Shown: one piece after another, positions 11,860 to 64,000 of the stretch
Numbering within the stretch: position 1 is the first letter of the stretch
Layout: each line of letters begins with the position of its first letter
DNA from: Gammaproteobacteria bacterium
GTDB taxonomy: Bacteria > Pseudomonadota > Gammaproteobacteria > Ga0077536
Length of the DNA stretch: 64,000 nt
Reading direction: 5' to 3'
NCBI GenBank assembly: GCA_963662545.2
Contig: CAXXLL010000003.1
Coordinates: forward strand, 2,464,001 to 2,528,000
The notes under the pieces: generated by a model
What the model saw: the letters and a program-made list of their open reading frames with translations, nothing else
Told to the model about the DNA's origin: nothing
Databases searched by the model: none
Program-made: the position numbers and the translations under genes

Positions 11860-12180
11860 CCGCACATCTATCTTTACTTGCTCTCAAGTCGGTTCGTGCG
11901 AAACTTCCGCTCGGTTGTTTGCGTACCGATCTTGGAGGGTATCAACAAGATCGCCGTGTCGATCAGCGGCTCGCCAAAGATAACGACGTTGACATCGGTT
12001 TGAAACGACAACCTCGCTGAGAAACCAGCGCTCGCCTCGAGGTCCGTTAGATTTCTTGATCCGCCGAACGTACTCCGGATCGAATGTCAGACACCACTGT
12101 CGAATGTTTCGTAAGACATCGCAATACCACGTTCCACCAAAATGTCCTCGACGTCCCGGTAGCTGAGCGTGAAACACCCG
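11860..12180 (-). mobile_element. Degenerate IS6 family remnant
   Basis: WFLSEV...RYLWRAADRHGDLVD...YANNRAEVSHEPT resembles the IS6 DDE core. Confidence 0.7.
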
Positions 12181-56254: not shown

Positions 56255-57951
56255 GTGTCCGTCCATAAACAGGCATTTTCTTCGATGGGCACGGAGAAAT
56301 CGAGGTGTTGAAAGTAGGTTGTTGGAGCGGTAGCGGCGGTTCGGTGGGGGTCGAAGGGCTCTTCGAGCGTAATTGTGAGTACGTTCGCCGGCCGCAGAGC
56401 GCTGCAACCCAAAGTCGCCCGTTCGACGATATCGAGGAGGTCAGTTAGTGCGAGTGAACGTCGCTATTCGAGTTGATAGCGCGCGAGCAGGCTGAGGTTG
56501 TAGGCGACCACAGAAGACCACACGTAGGCTTCGAAGTGCGGCAGGCTCTTCCAGGTGCAACGTGCCAATCCGTATGCACGCTTCAGGCAGGAGATACCGG
56601 CCTCGATGCCGGCGCGGAAGTTGCGCAAGCGTCGATAGACCCACTGACTCTTGACCATGTCGGCGATCGCGAGCCCGCGCTTCTTGTGGAAGGCAACGTC
56701 TTCGATGCCTTCTGCTTTCGCCGCCCGGAGATTGTCGAGGCTCGCATAGCCGCCATCGGCGGCGACCTGTCGTGGCATCGTCCCGTAGTGTGTTCGATGC
56801 CGTTCGAGCATCGGCATGAAGCGCTGACTATCGACCGGATTGCCTCGCTCGATGACCACGTCGAGGATGAGGCCACTGCGCCCCGAAGCCAGATTGATTT
56901 TGTGTCCGTACTGAACGTCGCGCGCACCCTTTATGATGATGTCGGTATGCGGCTCGAACAAGCTCACGCACTTCTCGCTCGCGGGGACCTTCTCACCGCC
57001 GAACACCCGCCGCTCAGTTTGCGAAATCACCTGCAGAACAAGTGTTTCGTAGTGCGCTACCTGCGCTAGCCAGTCCGGCAGTTCAACGCCGGTGACGCCC
57101 GGGCTCAGCAGCTGCTCACGTACCCTCGCTACCGCTTCCAAGGTTGAACGCGTCGCCCCAATCAAATCGCGATACAGACGTTGGCGTTGCTTCGCACCAC
57201 GCGCATACCACAGCGCCCGCGCACGCTTCTTCGCCAATCGAGTGTGGTTCACGAAGCACAACTCCGGCGCGCCAGGCAACTCGCGCGCCTGTGCGAGCAG
57301 ACGAACCACAACACGCACGCCATCCCACAGCAGATGACTGTCGCTCGGCGCGTGGATGGCACTGTCCGTTACCGTGCTATCAATCCGTACACGCTGTGCC
57401 GGCTCAATGCGCGTCTCTTTCGCCGTCGCCAGCAGGGCGCGATGAATAGACTCCCACGTCGATACCTGGATCGCCGAGACCACCCGCTGTAAGGCAGACT
57501 TCTTCGGACGTTCATTACCCGGCAACCGGGCGAAGGCCTGAAAGCTCGCCGAGTCCTGCAGGTGAAAGGCCAGCTCCTCGTAACTCAATTGCCGGTGCTG
57601 CTTGAGCACCGCGCAGCGCAGCACCGACTCCGCCGACAGTCCGCGTCGACCGGTGGGCTTCAAACCCCGCCGACACAGATCGTTCATGACCGGCGTGAGG
57701 ACCTTGGGGTGAGCATCGAGCCACTCGGACATGCCCTGCAGCTCTCGCCCCAGGTCATGGTCAGCAAACAGCTCGTATATACTCGCTTGGGCCGTGCGTT
57801 TCTGACGCATTCCCCCTCCTGTGGTGTCGATGATTGTGTGGAAAATCAGAGGTTTGAAGTTCCATTAGATCACGACCCACCGGAGGTTTCGATCCCTTAA
57901 GCGACAAATTTTCCTTTTTATTTCAACCGCATCGCGTTTAGGGATGCACAC
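56255..57951 (-). mobile_element. ISNCY family element
   Basis: Ends GTGTCCGTCCATAAAC / GTTTAGGGATGCACAC; near-duplication TAGCAA/TAGCTA. Confidence 0.8.
56464..57810 (-). CDS. ISNCY family transposase
   Basis: RIDSTV, SLFEPHTDII, AADGGYAS and FRAGIEAGIS motifs. Confidence 0.92.
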   Translation of the reverse strand: MRQKRTAQASIYELFADHDLGRELQGMSEWLDAHPKVLTPVMNDLCRRGLKPTGRRGLSAESVLRCAVLKQHRQLSYEELAFHLQDSASFQAFARLPGNERPKKSALQRVVSAIQVSTWESIHRALLATAKETRIEPAQRVRIDSTVTDSAIHAPSDSHLLWDGVRVVVRLLAQARELPGAPELCFVNHTRLAKKRARALWYARGAKQRQRLYRDLIGATRSTLEAVARVREQLLSPGVTGVELPDWLAQVAHYETLVLQVISQTERRVFGGEKVPASEKCVSLFEPHTDIIIKGARDVQYGHKINLASGRSGLILDVVIERGNPVDSQRFMPMLERHRTHYGTMPRQVAADGGYASLDNLRAAKAEGIEDVAFHKKRGLAIADMVKSQWVYRRLRNFRAGIEAGISCLKRAYGLARCTWKSLPHFEAYVWSSVVAYNLSLLARYQLE

Positions 57952-58116
57952 TAGCTAAAGGCCTCCCGTCATCGCCATTTCAGGTCTCGTCAATCAAGCT
58001 CCTTAAGAACCTCACGCCCGCTAATTCGACCGCCAATTGGGCGGTTCTTTTTGGGCTGTACTGGAGGGGCTCTGTAGCTAGGGCCTGTCAGCGCCTGAGC
58101 GAAGTAGTTGCATGCA

Positions 58117-58165
58117 TTGACGAATAAACGTCAACGGCTATATACGATTGACGATCTCAACGTCG
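58117..58165. promoter_or_regulatory. Tandem palindromic operators overlapping -35-like boxes
   Basis: TTGACG-N6-CGTCAA followed by TTGACG-N7-CGTCGC. Confidence 0.45.
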
Positions 58166-59108
58166 CCATAGCACACTGCCAACCGTGACAATTCGCGTGG
58201 TCCGCCCCTGCCGGGCCACCCGTTGAATGCAATAGCCGCTATACGGTTCGGGAGTAGCTACGCAAGTTTGGTGAACAGGCGGGGACTTCCTCTTTCCGAG
58301 ACATGCTGGCAGGGGGGATGCAGGGGTCGGCTTTTAGCATCGCTGCTTCGGCCGACCTTTCCTCCTGCCGGCGCCCTGGGTAAACGGGCATATCCCAATG
58401 ATTTGAGAGCACCCCGCCTGAGTGGGTCAGGCGGGGCTCAAACCGACGAGAAGGAGAGTTCTCATGAGTGATGAAGACTTTCAAGGGGGCCGATTGGCCG
58501 CGCCGATGAAATCACGCCTCGGATTCAAGAGGCGGGTATTCTGCTGGACATGAAGGTTCGGTATCCTGGAATGCGGCCGCAAGATCCTCCTTCAAGAGAA
58601 GCGGTACTGGTTCCTCTGGATGTGGGTTTCGAATTGTCGGAAGCACTACGATCGGCGGTGATAGAGTGGAGACGGCACTATCAGGATCGGGATTAGAATT
58701 AGACACAGAAAAACCCTCCTGGTTATCTATGGAGACAACCGCCGCGAGGGTGTGTTGCGCGTCCTTAGCTTGCCGGCCGCGAAGCGCGTTATCGAACCAG
58801 GTCGGGGTGGCATAGCCTGCACCCCACCCTCTCTTCAACCTGCGCACCGCACCATTTTAGACTGAGACAGTACCCCGCTGACTTGTCACGATGGCCCGTA
58901 ACCGCTTGATTTCACCCATGGGCACAAACCCCAGCCCTAAGTTCAGACACTCGATGTCTGTGCACACGGTGGCCGACGGTGGCCACCGTGGCCAGCCGCA
59001 CATGTACGTCTGGCAGGACACGAACAGCGCTCAGCAGGCGTGGGTGCATGATGGGATGGGGTGCGAGGCAGGGGTGCGTGGCGGTGCGGTACAGCAAATT
59101 TCGGGCGC

Positions 59109-59255
59109 CATGGCCGATGGCCGCGAGGTGTACCGGTCAGGTGCGCGATAATTCATCTTATCGCACATCTGATGCGAATCGAACATGGGACCTGGCGCAG
59201 ATTGATGAAGGGGTTCGCGGTCTCCGCGGCGCGAGCTCGAAGTATCTATGCCTCC
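59109..59255 (+). repeat. ~145-bp module A with Xer/dif-like site
   Basis: GGTGCGCGATAA-TTCATC-TTATCGCACATC, then CATGGGACC, a G-run and TCGAAGTATCTATG. Confidence 0.7.
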
Positions 59256-60294
59256 GAACGTCCCTTACCCTCCCTCACACACGAGAGCCGGTACCGTAGG
59301 CCGGGCGCCCAGCGATATAATGGATGGGCACCTCCGTACCATGGTACCGTGGGCTGTGGGGGCGGTGGTAAGTGCCGAGCAACACAGTCAATGGCACGGG
59401 GGCACGCTCTCACGTGCGCCATCAAGGGCCGCCAGCCTTAAGTCGCGGCGTTCCAGCTGCGCGATAATGGGTCTCATCGCGCAGCTGAAAGGGATCGCCG
59501 GAAGGGGAGGATCCCCGGCGCGGGCATACGTGCACCTGTATAGATAGACATATTTTTTCGTTTTTTGTGTCAAAAGCCTGTTTTTTCCAATGTGATCATA
59601 TGGATATCTGGCACAAACCTGGCACAGCGCTGTGCCGGCCACCCTGGGTCGACATGACGCACATGTAGCTTGCGCGATGGAAACTTCCCACCCCGGCACG
59701 GAGGTCCGCTGCGCGCCAGCCGTTCGAAAATCGTAAGCGCCGCGATGTGGATCGCCCCAGCTTTTCCGAAGACCTTTTTGGTTGAGTCGACCTGCGTCCA
59801 ACTCGCGCATCAGCAGTGGACTACTTAATGGCCGCAAGAGCGACGTTGCTTCATTGAGGGGGTCATTTTTTCCGCCGGTTCGGGCCCCGGCTGACGCGGA
59901 TTGACGCCTCTATTATTACATCCGATAATTGTCCTTATCAGACATAATAGCGGGCGAGAACCCCATGCAAAAGACCCCGGCCCTGAGCCCCGCGCGCGCC
60001 GTGTCCACCGCCGGGGCCTCTGTGGTCGAAATGCAGCAGGCGGGCCGCTGGCAATCGCCGTCCATGCCGGGCCGCTATGCGTGGGGCCCGCCGGGGCGCC
60101 GTCGCCAGGCTCCGCTACGGGGCGTGACTCAGCGCCACTGCGTGGGCCGGTGCTGCCAGATTCTGCGGGCACCGGGAACTTGACGCTGTGTCGTCAAGCC
60201 TATAGGCACCCGCTAATGCATGAGAGGTATGGGCGGTATAAAGGCGCTGGGATGTCAAGCCTTGACGCTGCACGCGTACCAACCCGAAGTTTGG

Positions 60295-60392
60295 GTGGAC
60301 CTATATCTGCGCGTTCGGCTGGCCTGCCATGTTGATGGTCTGAGCCAGCGAGAGGCGGCAAGTCGGTTTGGCATTGCGCGCGAGACGGTGAG
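60295..60392 (+). repeat. 98-bp internal copy of IS21 istA 5' region
   Basis: Matches 43613-43710; no IS21 ends present. Confidence 0.9.
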
Positions 60393-60470
60393 CCGGCGTC
60401 AGATTTCAATCGCAGGCCGAACGTCGGTCTCGATCGACGCGCGCCCGCGCCCATGTCCTGGGCGCTCAAA

Positions 60471-60613
60471 CCATGGCTGAGCCGGGTTCCAGATGCGCGA
60501 TAATTCACTTTATCGCGCATCAGCCCCGGTCGCCGCATGGGACCCGCAGCAATCGAGGACCGGGGGGGGGCTCCTTTTTGCCTCGCCGCTCGATTCGAAG
60601 TACCTATGGGTCC
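60471..60613 (+). repeat. ~145-bp module B with Xer/dif-like site
   Basis: CATGGCTGAGCCGGGTTCC, GATGCGCGATAA-TTCACT-TTATCGCGCATC, CATGGGACCC, G-run, AAGTACCTATGGGTC. Confidence 0.78.
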
Positions 60614-61403
60614 ATTCATCCCACGGGAGCCCTCGCGCACGGGGCTTGGGGTGGTCAAACATTGACCAATTGGCACAGAAATATGCAGGCGGTGTGCCGG
60701 GTCTGTGCCGCTCTAGGCCGCGTGGGACGTGGGAGCTATGCCAGGCTGTGCCGGCGTTGTGCCGGGTTTTAGGGGGTATTATTATTATCTTTTCAATAAG
60801 ATAGATAGATAGGGGGTTGACGTTTCGATGTTTTCCCCCGGAAACACCCCTCACGCGCGCGCGAATGCGCGCGCACCCGAATCTACCTTTTTTCTGGGAT
60901 TCTGTGCCATTTGCCACTTTTCCTTTTAGGTTCAGTAGGTTATCCGGCACACGCTTGGCACAGCGTTGTGCCGGGAACCTGAATCTCCCGAAAATTCAGA
61001 GGTTTAACATACCCTCTCCAGCACATGGTAATGTGGGTTTGTGTCGGCGCTGGGTAGTGTCTCAGTCAGACGTTTTCCAATGACAAAAAATGACCCGACC
61101 GAGGTCTATAACATGCTCGACGACCTCGGCTTGCTGGAGGGCATTGGCCGGGAGCCGGACAACATCACGAAGATTATCTGGCGCTGCCTCAGAAACTATC
61201 GCGACAAAGCGCTAATTTCATACTGAGACACTGCCACATATTCGCATGCGTTTAAGACCACCGACCATCCATGGAACAATCCGCCCGTCAATACAAGGTC
61301 GTCATGCCCGTACGCTAACCAGCCGGAGGCTTGGGCAGTACGGAAGCGTCAGGGTGTCAAAACCTCGGCGCCTCGCGCGCAGGCCCCAACAAGTGAGACA
61401 ACG

Positions 61404-61545
61404 AGACCCATAGGTACTTAAGCCAAACGCCGACGTGGTTGGAGGACCCCCCCTGAGGCTTCAAGCCAACGGGTCCCATCCGCGACTCTTTGCACATGCG
61501 CGATAAACCCAATTTTCGCGTATCGGGAACCCGGGCTCAGCCATG
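61404..61545 (-). repeat. ~145-bp module C (inverted)
   Basis: Minus strand CATGGCTGAGCCCGGGTTCC, GATACGCGAAAA-TTGGGT-TTATCGCGCAT, ATGGGACCC, G-run, AAGTACCTATGGGTC. Confidence 0.78.
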
Positions 61546-62275
61546 ATTCGAGCGCCCGGGACGTGAGCGGGGGGCGCGCATTGACCAAGACCGACAGGGG
61601 CCTCCAATACTTCACACAGGGTGTCATCGCAGGGGCATGAGATTCTGCGCGTCAGGGTCGCCCGGGCCATCGCATGGGGCTATCGCCCCGCGGCCACCGG
61701 CACGCCTTGCTCGCGGATCACGCGCTATCGCCGTCCGTTGCGAGGGCGGCTGCCCTCTTGTACCCCTTGCAGGAGGGCAGTCTCTATCTTATTCGGACCA
61801 GGCGGCTGAACCATTGTGGCTGATGGAACCCACTCCCTGGCCAGCACCCGCACCGTGTGCAAGTGTGGGAACTGCGCCTATTTCTATGTGAGTTGTAACG
61901 ATAAGGTCGGGTAGTTCACCGTGAACCGCCGCAGGTAAATCAAATGGATGCCAATGAGATGGTGCTGTGGCCGAAGGTTTGTTGCAGCGACTGGTGCGGG
62001 CAATACAGGTCCGTTGACGACGATTACGAACGGGAAGAAGCGAGTCGGGCGCGTCGCCTGGTACCGCTGATAAGCAGGTGCGTTGTAGCGGCATGACCGC
62101 ATGCCAAACCCGCAACCCTGTAGCCTCAGTTAGAAGAACGGTTAAAATCTTGAGTTAGGAGATTTCGATCTGGATTCAGGGAATTTAAAGGAGGCCTTGT
62201 CAATGTATGCTCTCATCAAAGCGGCGCTGGACAAGACCGGCGCCTTCCGGTGTTTGCGGCGCGGGTTGTAGCCCC

Positions 62276-63223
62276 ATGAGTGATTTCATCGCGCGCAAGG
62301 ATCACCTGGAATGCCTGATAGCTGAGTGGGAAAGCTTTGCGACGCCCACAGCTGACAAGCACGCTCCACAGCAAACGTACCTGGCCGACTTGAAGCAAAC
62401 GCGCTTGGTTGCGTTAAAAAAGGAGCTTGCCGGGATAGAGCGGCGTGAACGCCGGTCTCGGAAACCCCGCGCCGGCAAGCACCGCCGCCCCGCAGACGCC
62501 GGGGAAGAGGGAACTTTCATAGCACCGGATTTCCAGGAGAGTTTTTTCGCCTATCCAAAGGCCATGCGCAGGCTGAAGACACGATTGAAAGCGACGAGGG
62601 AGGAATTAGCGGCTTGGGTGTTTTTAGGGCCGGCACTGGGCGGAGTCACGGCCTACGTGAATGTCGATGAGGAGGAACCGCCGAAGCTCTTCAATTACTA
62701 CCCCCCCAGGGCTGGCTGGGACTATTGTGCGCCGCTGATGGTTTGTTGGTTTATCCGGGAAGAGGTAGTCAACTTTAAGCCAAGCAAGCGGTACATAACG
62801 GGCAGCGTACTCATCGAGCGCTGGCACAAGTATGAGGACATCGATCCGGCAGAATTCATCGGTGCCCAGATCAACAAAGGACGTTTAAGCGATATCCACC
62901 CTATTAAAGGCCACACCCAGGGGGGCATGGGCATGCTGGGGAACGATGCGTATCCTCCGCTGGAAAGCGGTCTTTTCGCAGTCTCTGAAATAGAAGCGAT
63001 CGAGGAGACTTATTTCGACACGGGCGCAGCAGACGGGCCAGCAAAAGATCCGGGACGCTTGAATCACGATCTTGAGCTTCAAGCTCGTGCAAACGAAATT
63101 GCAAAAGATCTAAAGGAAAAGCGCAAACGGGACGTAACCAGAAATGACGTCGCAAAGCATTTGGCCGAGGAGTGTGGTCTTACTGAAGCCACGGTCGTGC
63201 GCAGGATACGGAAGAAGTGGTAG
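62276..63223 (+). CDS. Hypothetical protein with C-terminal HTH-like segment
   Basis: Long open frame; N-terminal coiled coil; C-terminal VAKHLAEECGLTEATVVRRI; typical position upstream of alpA. Confidence 0.7.
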   Translation: MSDFIARKDHLECLIAEWESFATPTADKHAPQQTYLADLKQTRLVALKKELAGIERRERRSRKPRAGKHRRPADAGEEGTFIAPDFQESFFAYPKAMRRLKTRLKATREELAAWVFLGPALGGVTAYVNVDEEEPPKLFNYYPPRAGWDYCAPLMVCWFIREEVVNFKPSKRYITGSVLIERWHKYEDIDPAEFIGAQINKGRLSDIHPIKGHTQGGMGMLGNDAYPPLESGLFAVSEIEAIEETYFDTGAADGPAKDPGRLNHDLELQARANEIAKDLKEKRKRDVTRNDVAKHLAEECGLTEATVVRRIRKKW

Positions 63224-63867: not shown

Positions 63868-64000
63868 ATGCCGATTAGCATCCTGAGACTTCCCGCCGTC
63901 AAGGCCCGTACCGGACTTTCTCGCAGCACGATTTATCTCCGCATATCAGAAGGCAATTTCCCAAAGCCCATATCCCTGGGCGGCCGCGCCGTCGGCTGGG
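63868..64000 (+). CDS. alpA: AlpA family regulator/excisionase (runs off window)
   Basis: ILRLPAVKARTGLSRSTIYLRISEGNFPKPISLGGRAVGW. Confidence 0.95.
   Translation, partial: MPISILRLPAVKARTGLSRSTIYLRISEGNFPKPISLGGRAVGW

Follow-up and report, generated by a model that had tools for sequence, protein, structure and literature searches.

Five short palindromes lie between positions 59140 and 61524 of the window, the 64,000-nt stretch of DNA that we analyzed (C3:2464001-2528000 of the source genome G000, which comprises 3 contigs and 5.58 Mb), and they raise the question of which enzyme, if any, they serve. A first-pass annotation had read them as Xer/dif-like sites in a possible cassette-shuffling array of the pdif type. 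Direct inspection of the sequence found all five, with their 6-bp centers, where that annotation had placed them, and their number exceeds chance: the window holds 4 matches to GCGCGATAA-N6-TTATCGCGC with up to three mismatches, whereas 100 shuffled versions averaged 0.05 and never gave 4.

The 6-bp center is specific. When spacings are counted across the genome, GATAA-Nx-TTATC occurs 28 times at x = 6 versus 2-4 times at each of x = 3, 4, 5, 7, 8, 9, and 10, with an unrelated multicopy element accounting for 14 of the 28 copies. When 9 or more of the 11 arm bases must be complementary, ATAA-Nx-TTAT occurs 8 times at x = 6, twice at x = 7, and never at x = 4, 5, 8, or 9. The multicopy element, found at 14 places in G000 (e.g., C3:2641830 and C3:2786032), carries the palindrome GGTGATAA-GCGAAC-TTATCAAC with the same inner core; 240 nt of it are identical in 13 copies, and C3:2786032 has a short piece of it, between flanks that are repeated.

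The palindromes look like lox-type sites of two kinds. In a correction to the first-pass annotation, sites 1, 2, 4, and 5 share one motif and site 3 is a different one, which has other arms (TCCGATAA/TTATCAGA) and is not among the matches to GCGCGATAA-N6-TTATCGCGC at up to three mismatches. Site 1 (59140..59169, plus strand; GCGCGATAA arms, spacer TTCATC) was recovered by pattern and profile, and there is a 75% likeness between its right flank and the left one of the site at C2:1745154. Site 2 (59456..59485, plus strand; spacer TGGGTC) is the outer site of a recombinase module, and its palindrome, spacer, and flanks recur at C2:1748407 and in a second genome, G400. Site 3, of the SloxP/lox11 type, occupies 59911..59950 on the plus strand (core from 59920, spacer TTGTCC). 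Site 4 (60492..60521, plus strand; pattern and profile) is a perfect palindrome whose spacer, TTCACT, is shared with C3:2220320 and G400, and site 5 (61495..61524, minus strand; spacer TTGGGT in module orientation) is a member of the commonest, TTGAGT-like subtype. Strong copies of the GCGCGATAA-type palindrome number 13 in G000, the genome profile being built from these 13 and circular for them, and the site 3 type is present at 2 places.

We consider it probable that the five palindromes are lox-type cores of single-subunit tyrosine recombinases of the Cre/TnpS class, lying in nested, decayed pieces of integrative elements. Each of the two arms of such a core would bind one monomer, on either side of the 6-bp center. 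The evidence includes a gene remnant: contrary to the first-pass remark that the recombinase was not in the window, a Cre-like tyrosine recombinase pseudogene runs from an ATG at 59965 to a stop at 60127 (59965..60127, plus strand), starting 15 bp downstream of site 3. Relative to the intact 308-aa orthologue in G400 (G400:C27:10564-11487, minus strand), it is missing 756 and 8 nt through two deletions, and 159 of the 161 aligned bases are identical. The remark survives in one respect, in that no intact family gene for the four GCGCGATAA sites was found in the genome.

G400 is one of only 3 among 401 genomes of the class that contain the motif pattern, and its gene order is that of the window: the site with spacer TGGGTC, site 3, the intact 308-aa gene, the site with spacer TTCACT, a box, and a GGCACA array. 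A paralogue of window positions 59339-60295 on C2 (96%) keeps most of the tyrosine-recombinase catalytic domain (PF00589, E 1e-16), and all 17 of its PDB matches are Cre or Tre. The R-K-H-R-W-Y set (R155, K180, H255, R258, W281, and Y290) is invariant in all 30 aligned homologues from a Cre-like family that took in 526 proteins among 8000 scored candidates. The G400 gene encodes this set within the 300-400 aa of a Cre-type enzyme; the copies in G000 are all broken, and no intact family gene was found in G000, G001, or G061. Together with the gene-site linkage described below, the PDB matches and the residue set bear out the earlier suggestion of a tyrosine-recombinase core geometry and a single-subunit enzyme.

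The undeleted form of the gene is present in contigs of 4 of the 4 public runs counted, one of them labelled as a sponge metagenome; runs with a share below 0.2 (X4-X6) were left out of this count. Scans of viral contigs with the recombinase found no related locus. More distant relatives can be clustered: four Cre-like genes lie within about 20 kb at G507:C4 873988-896267 (L320, L328, and L335); the open frames of some are long (664 and 814 aa), and the upstream palindrome is absent in the 3 examined.

The linkage of such genes to such sites was assessed at those of 47 examined loci that offered a full-length Cre-like gene and 300 nt or more of upstream sequence, 37 genes in all; the 37 are not independent, as many come from kin of genome G063 and 7 were reached via the motif or used in the model. 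GATAA-N6-TTATC lies within 400 nt upstream of 22 of them, with none in the downstream control windows, and 16 of these 22 palindromes are of the CGCGATAA type. The 15 genes without the palindrome include the closest other homologue fetched (L309). Approached from the other side, a match to a tyrosine recombinase begins within 1.7 kb at 12 of 20 outside loci with a bare palindrome (10 Cre-like, 2 XerC-like), and the other 8 loci have no recombinase within 3 kb. The Cre-like enzyme also matches, at 39% over 227 aa, a plasmid recombinase accompanied by a divergent KfrA_N gene and a site-3-type palindrome; the exact core is present in 1 of 7 plasmid homologue loci. TnpT, the divergently encoded helper of TnpS, is presumably a PF11740 member, which fits locus L265.

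Judged from the sequences, arm type follows the recombinase clade in a quick version of the Cre-like tree built without bootstrap. In a Chloroflexota-side clade, the GCGCGATAA type is found at 62-74 nt in 10 of 14 genes reached by protein search alone; in the clade of the G400 enzyme, 5 of the 12 genes found by protein alone have TCCGATAA-like arms and none has GCGCGATAA. In G063, 6 of 7 GCGCGATAA-type sites are followed by a Cre-like match at a distance of 109-137 nt, and both site types stand upstream of a single gene in G400 and G062. Around the window's own remnant, site 3 is 15 nt away, site 2 about 480 nt, and site 4 about 365 nt, so that symmetric sites of the 13-8-13 type lie within 1 kb of the gene.

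Since the clade of the local enzyme goes with TCCGATAA and not with GCGCGATAA, the sequences allow the enzyme to be named for site 3, and to be assigned to class only for the other four. The enzyme for sites 1, 2, 4, and 5 would normally come from a related Cre-like clade, or be the same one with relaxed specificity. Here it must be supplied in trans.

Site 3 can be compared with Cre-type sites that have been tested, namely SloxM1 and lox11, in the accessible parts of PMC3082901 and PMC10250229, respectively. Its right arm agrees with lox11, as given in the primer table of PMC10250229, at 12 of 14 positions, and its two arms agree with SloxM1 (PMC3082901) at 8 of 13 and 9 of 13. A predicted sigma-70 promoter (TTGACG-17-GATAAT, 59901..59929, plus strand; 10/12 in a consensus scan) has its -10 box inside the left arm of the site; consensus matching gave 3 such promoters in 400 bp versus 0.1 expected. 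Site 3 probably served the local Cre-like recombinase as cognate site and as operator, bound by it both for recombination and for repression of its own promoter.

The GCGCGATAA-type sites have a companion, a box consisting of GGGACCC, then a run of G, then AAGTACCTATG, 64-72 nt in all. Boxes start 19 nt after site 1 (59187..59250, plus strand; a diverged copy, GGGACC ... AAGTATCTATG), site 4 (60539..60608, plus strand), and site 5 (61409..61477, minus strand; found by profile), and site 2 has no full box. By profile there are about 16 site-plus-box units in G000, and the site-plus-box model finds 3 in G001, 4 in G400, 23 in the alphaproteobacterial genome G061, and none in two Dehalococcoidia genomes; among 61 genomes around G061, 2 have matches. 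Many of these copies are degenerate. Box length is constant in G061, where the site-to-box distance ranges from 30 to 120 nt.

The box may be an accessory-protein site, a packaging signal, or a nick site. Several more specific ideas were tried and dropped. Helical phasing of the site-to-box distance proved too loose (17-19, 30-31, 59-60, 94-97, and 116-120 nt), and a possible likeness to a cos site found no support. Folding of the box as RNA or single-stranded DNA gave 3 pairs, no covariation, and no conserved fold; this, and the lack of genes between the window sites, also disposes of an integron attC array. The box pattern had no exact match in viral contigs and hit 17 stretches in metagenomes, all judged to be chance, and a loose viral scan returned 120 stretches, of which 80 loci were inspected with no convincing site-plus-box unit among them.

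After the box of site 4 come inverted GGCACA/TGTGCC arrays around an AT-rich core (60670..60979), a layout shared with G400 and G061; from their sequence, these arrays could be origin-like or integrase-arm-like. A short remnant of such an array at 59609..59637 (repeat family D4) is 81% like 60938-60979. In G061, the same 397-aa cargo gene stands beside site-plus-box units at L203 8549-9739 and L206 8598-9788, in the orientation opposite to the unit.

Other features of the region speak of insertion and duplication. A 98-bp fragment of an IS21-family transposase gene (60295..60392, plus strand; istA matches) is inserted here, recurs at 100% identity in 12 other parts of the genome, and is not in the G400 copy. 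The flank of site 4 (60423..60491, plus strand), which we call F1, is an inverted copy of the site 5 flank (repeats I1/I2, 84-85%). The F1 flank of site 5 itself (61525..61751, minus strand) was defined from paralogues, in which it runs about 0.5-1 kb to an island end with, in two cases, a tRNA gene: tRNA-Phe in G000 and a tRNA read by eye as Thr in G400. A small insertion with IS-like inverted ends (61049..61235; repeats I12 and D10) overlaps a 61-codon ORF that has no Pfam or NCBIfam match; insertion and ORF are 99% conserved in G400 and occur also at C3:2220900. Three related IS-like inverted ends are present in the window, at 58854-58878, 61049-61067, and 61215-61235.

To the right of the sites lies island backbone. 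A 338-aa hypothetical gene (62207..63223, plus strand) without a Pfam or NCBIfam family match occupies the same place ahead of AlpA in loci L002 and L200, and an AlpA regulator (63868..64000, plus strand; PF05930, E 1e-20) runs off the window. Beyond it come an 837-aa ORF, read from its motifs as a primase-helicase and without a Pfam or NCBIfam match, and then a tRNA-Ser. The most complete order is that of L200, with an intact P4-type integrase, site, box, GGCACA array, hypothetical gene, and AlpA; some other copies have an array of a different repeat ahead of the site. A backbone of integrase, AlpA or excisionase, and primase-helicase was found at L200, L204, L224/L226, and L003. The window has the AlpA gene, but no piece of an integrase gene could be identified at 57900-62300. 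Scanning the window for Rfam families and tRNA genes gave no matches, and blastn of 59100-61800 recovered only the IS21 piece from plasmids (38 records) and nothing from phages; the L200 module matched plasmids only at E 0.7.

On the Cre-type reading, the host elements would be integrative, with a P4-type integrase, AlpA or HTH_17, and a primase-helicase, and the islands would excise and replicate as circles. In an intact element, the Cre-like enzyme acting at its lox-type site would most likely resolve multimers of these circles, which is the role of Cre in P1 according to the accessible part of PMC8138268. As a side effect, elements with a common spacer could swap DNA on either side of the site, and repeated insertion and decay would leave several module ends adjacent to each other.

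The window cluster, as far as its sequence tells, is such a pile-up of module ends and not a working five-site array. In module orientation, the spacers are TTCATC, TGGGTC, TTGTCC, TTCACT, and TTGGGT, none identical to another and the best pair agreeing at 4 of 6 positions, and recombination usually needs spacer homology (PMC10250229, accessible text). With no identical spacers and little coding DNA between the sites, the proposed shuffling of cassettes among the five is unlikely.

Between islands, cassette-like reassortment is seen, for which homologous recombination is also a possible cause. Around spacer TTGAGT, all 4 combinations of two flanks (F1 and F2) with two cargoes are present in G000 and G001, and the segment 60492-61524 of the window itself, a third cargo, is found with each of the two flanks. 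In G001, two TTGAGT-type sites in direct repeat enclose 2.1 kb, and deletion between them would give the layout of C3:2910338. Relative to the spacer start, flank-type columns extend to -12 and cargo-type columns begin at +70, leaving a nearly identical stretch of 80 bp, from -11 to +69, as the crossover interval; three columns of flank type lie to the right of this. A swap exactly at the palindrome is weakened by the width of this interval, by the junction at C3:2221349, which breaks 17-30 nt outside the palindrome, and by the 40-nt flank families of 36 sites, which contain no reassortment cycle. In one run, a single contig connects 61506 with the opposite strand at 60505, the join being at the spacer; this observation is weak, as a paralogue could map in the same way.

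How, then, do other explanations fare against these data? Sites of 11-6-11 geometry, as found here, are described for Xer recombinases in the accessible part of PMC5357621, and a pdif-like cassette array recombined by host XerC/XerD, or by XerC alone, would account for the 6-bp center, the inner ATAA/TTAT bases, and the 2.1-kb cargo between two direct-repeat sites of the same spacer in G001; the host also encodes a XerD above the family cut-off. We nevertheless regard it as very unlikely. Neither a XerC arm nor a XerD arm like those of chromosomal dif could be assigned: in register with the best host dif candidate (C2:2180004, on a different contig from the window), the window arms agree at 3-5 of 11 positions for the XerC arm and 4-7 of 11 for the XerD arm, and the XerC-like character earlier given to both arms depends on a one-base slip against the Escherichia coli XerC arm, in-register identity being low. 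The fifth base outward is G in all window arms, as in SloxM1 and lox11, but C in the host dif candidate. In the available text of PMC6449649, pdif sites are described as similar to chromosomal dif, which these are not, and the window spacers all differ, with hardly any genes between the sites. A XerC-like single recombinase of mobile elements, or a P4-type integrase using secondary cores, is an unlikely enzyme for sites 1, 2, 4, and 5. The same palindrome does stand 1.0-1.4 kb before a XerC-like gene in L010 and L017, and in L200 and L204 it lies 160 bp after an intact P4-type integrase with no Cre-like gene near. The L017 protein, however, has no close relative in G000 (the only match at E ≤ 1e-15 is XerD, at 29%), the linkage with a fixed distance is to Cre-like genes, and the island ends observed are 0.5-1 kb from the site rather than at it.

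It is distinctly unlikely, too, that the GCGCGATAA palindromes are only operators or inert relics whose flanks were reassorted by homologous recombination in the 80-bp core. The extent of the crossover interval with its three outlying columns, the junction outside the palindrome, the many degenerate copies, and the predicted promoter overlapping site 3 would all suit this idea. Against it, the arms are conserved and the 6-bp center varies between subtypes, as in recombination cores, and three irregularities fall exactly at sites: at L203:10209 a spacer and an arm are duplicated, L224 has lost a spacer near 12180, and L214 has a spacer of 5 bp; the contig joined at the spacer is a weak point in the same direction. 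A bolder extension of the Cre-type reading, which we put forward tentatively and hold to be rather doubtful, is that the site, the 70-bp box, and often the origin-like array constitute a gene-less mobile docking module, shared by Gamma- and Alphaproteobacteria of one habitat and served in trans. Unrelated islands would then share a docking site, with Cre-like enzymes supplied by passing elements; spacers would act as compatibility codes, cargo between sites of the same spacer would move as cassettes, and the box would be the missing cis signal for an accessory protein, packaging, or nicking.

The enzyme class and the site geometry are already known. As described in the accessible parts of PMC3082901 (SCre/SloxP) and PMC10250229 (YR11/lox11), those systems likewise pair a single Cre-like enzyme of about 300-330 aa with symmetric arms in a site directly beside the gene, and site 3 shares their inner arm sequence; they differ from the present case in its up to two site types before one gene, its many orphan sites per genome, and its 70-bp box by the GCGCGATAA type. 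A search of one supplementary file of PMC10250229 did not recover GCGCGATA. In TnpS/TnpT and the rst site of Tn4651 and TnXax1, a Cre-related recombinase again has a core palindrome just upstream, and a second short inverted motif pair near the core could parallel IRa/IRb of rst (accessible parts of PMC4337579 and PMC7157771). Unlike in TnpS/TnpT, the divergent tnpT helper is absent here, with no PF11740 (KfrA_N) match in any of the four genomes G000, G400, G061, and G063. The ORFs scanned around the sites included no Tn3-family transposase, and the host element, unlike Tn4651 and TnXax1, is an integrase/primase island.

That island resembles P4-like satellites and PICI-like islands, as far as the accessible parts of PMC13586616, PMC8628076, and PMC10111431 describe them, in its integrase with an arm-binding domain, AlpA, primase-helicase, tRNA-linked ends, and variable cargo near conserved cis sequences. 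No capsid-hijacking or terminase gene was found beside the box, and phage records had no match to the region. A lox-type site is not among the satellite and PICI features described in the available text of PMC13586616. Acinetobacter pdif modules, in the available text of PMC6449649, are alike in having several sites with 6-bp centers in accessory DNA, cargo between sites, and reassortment between elements, but the present sites differ from them in that their arms are symmetric and lack a XerD half, they have little identity to the host dif, and they are linked to an element-borne enzyme. For the GCGCGATAA arm type, the two-site layout, and the box, we found no description in the literature searched, which was mostly without subscription papers.

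The pdif reading is thereby replaced by a Cre-type reading that can be tested. It offers natural enzyme-site pairs, namely the intact 308-aa recombinase together with a site resembling lox11, and the second clade with the GCGCGATAA arms to which it is linked; such pairs are raw material for orthogonal recombinases. If islands do share a docking module, this would provide a mechanism by which cargo turns over fast in satellite-like islands, a point left open in the accessible part of PMC13586616.

A few minor observations concern neighboring sequence. Two identical dif-like sites of G000 with XerC- and XerD-type arms, C2:2590166 and C3:9939, lie near contig ends; an integrase-like gene at C3:7266 is about 2 kb away. 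A 108-bp segment at window positions 58129-58236 has 87% repeats at 7 other places, several of them about 7 kb from copies of a 396-aa integrase, and is probably island-backbone sequence. At 58900-59000, inverted repeats of the GGCCACCGT type look, by eye, like those after the VapE helicase gene of L003; blastn did not recover them. At L224 9100-9520 (G400:C27), a module runs up to the 3' portion of a putative polyprenyl diphosphate synthase gene, recognized by eye, after which comes a tRNA fragment; this is possibly an island integration site. The sequence after the tRNA-Ser beyond the window (L001 11000-12430; C3:2531000-2532430) recurs in the genome behind four other 3' ends that resemble tRNA-Ser, for example, at C2:553678-554753 (94% over 1078 nt).
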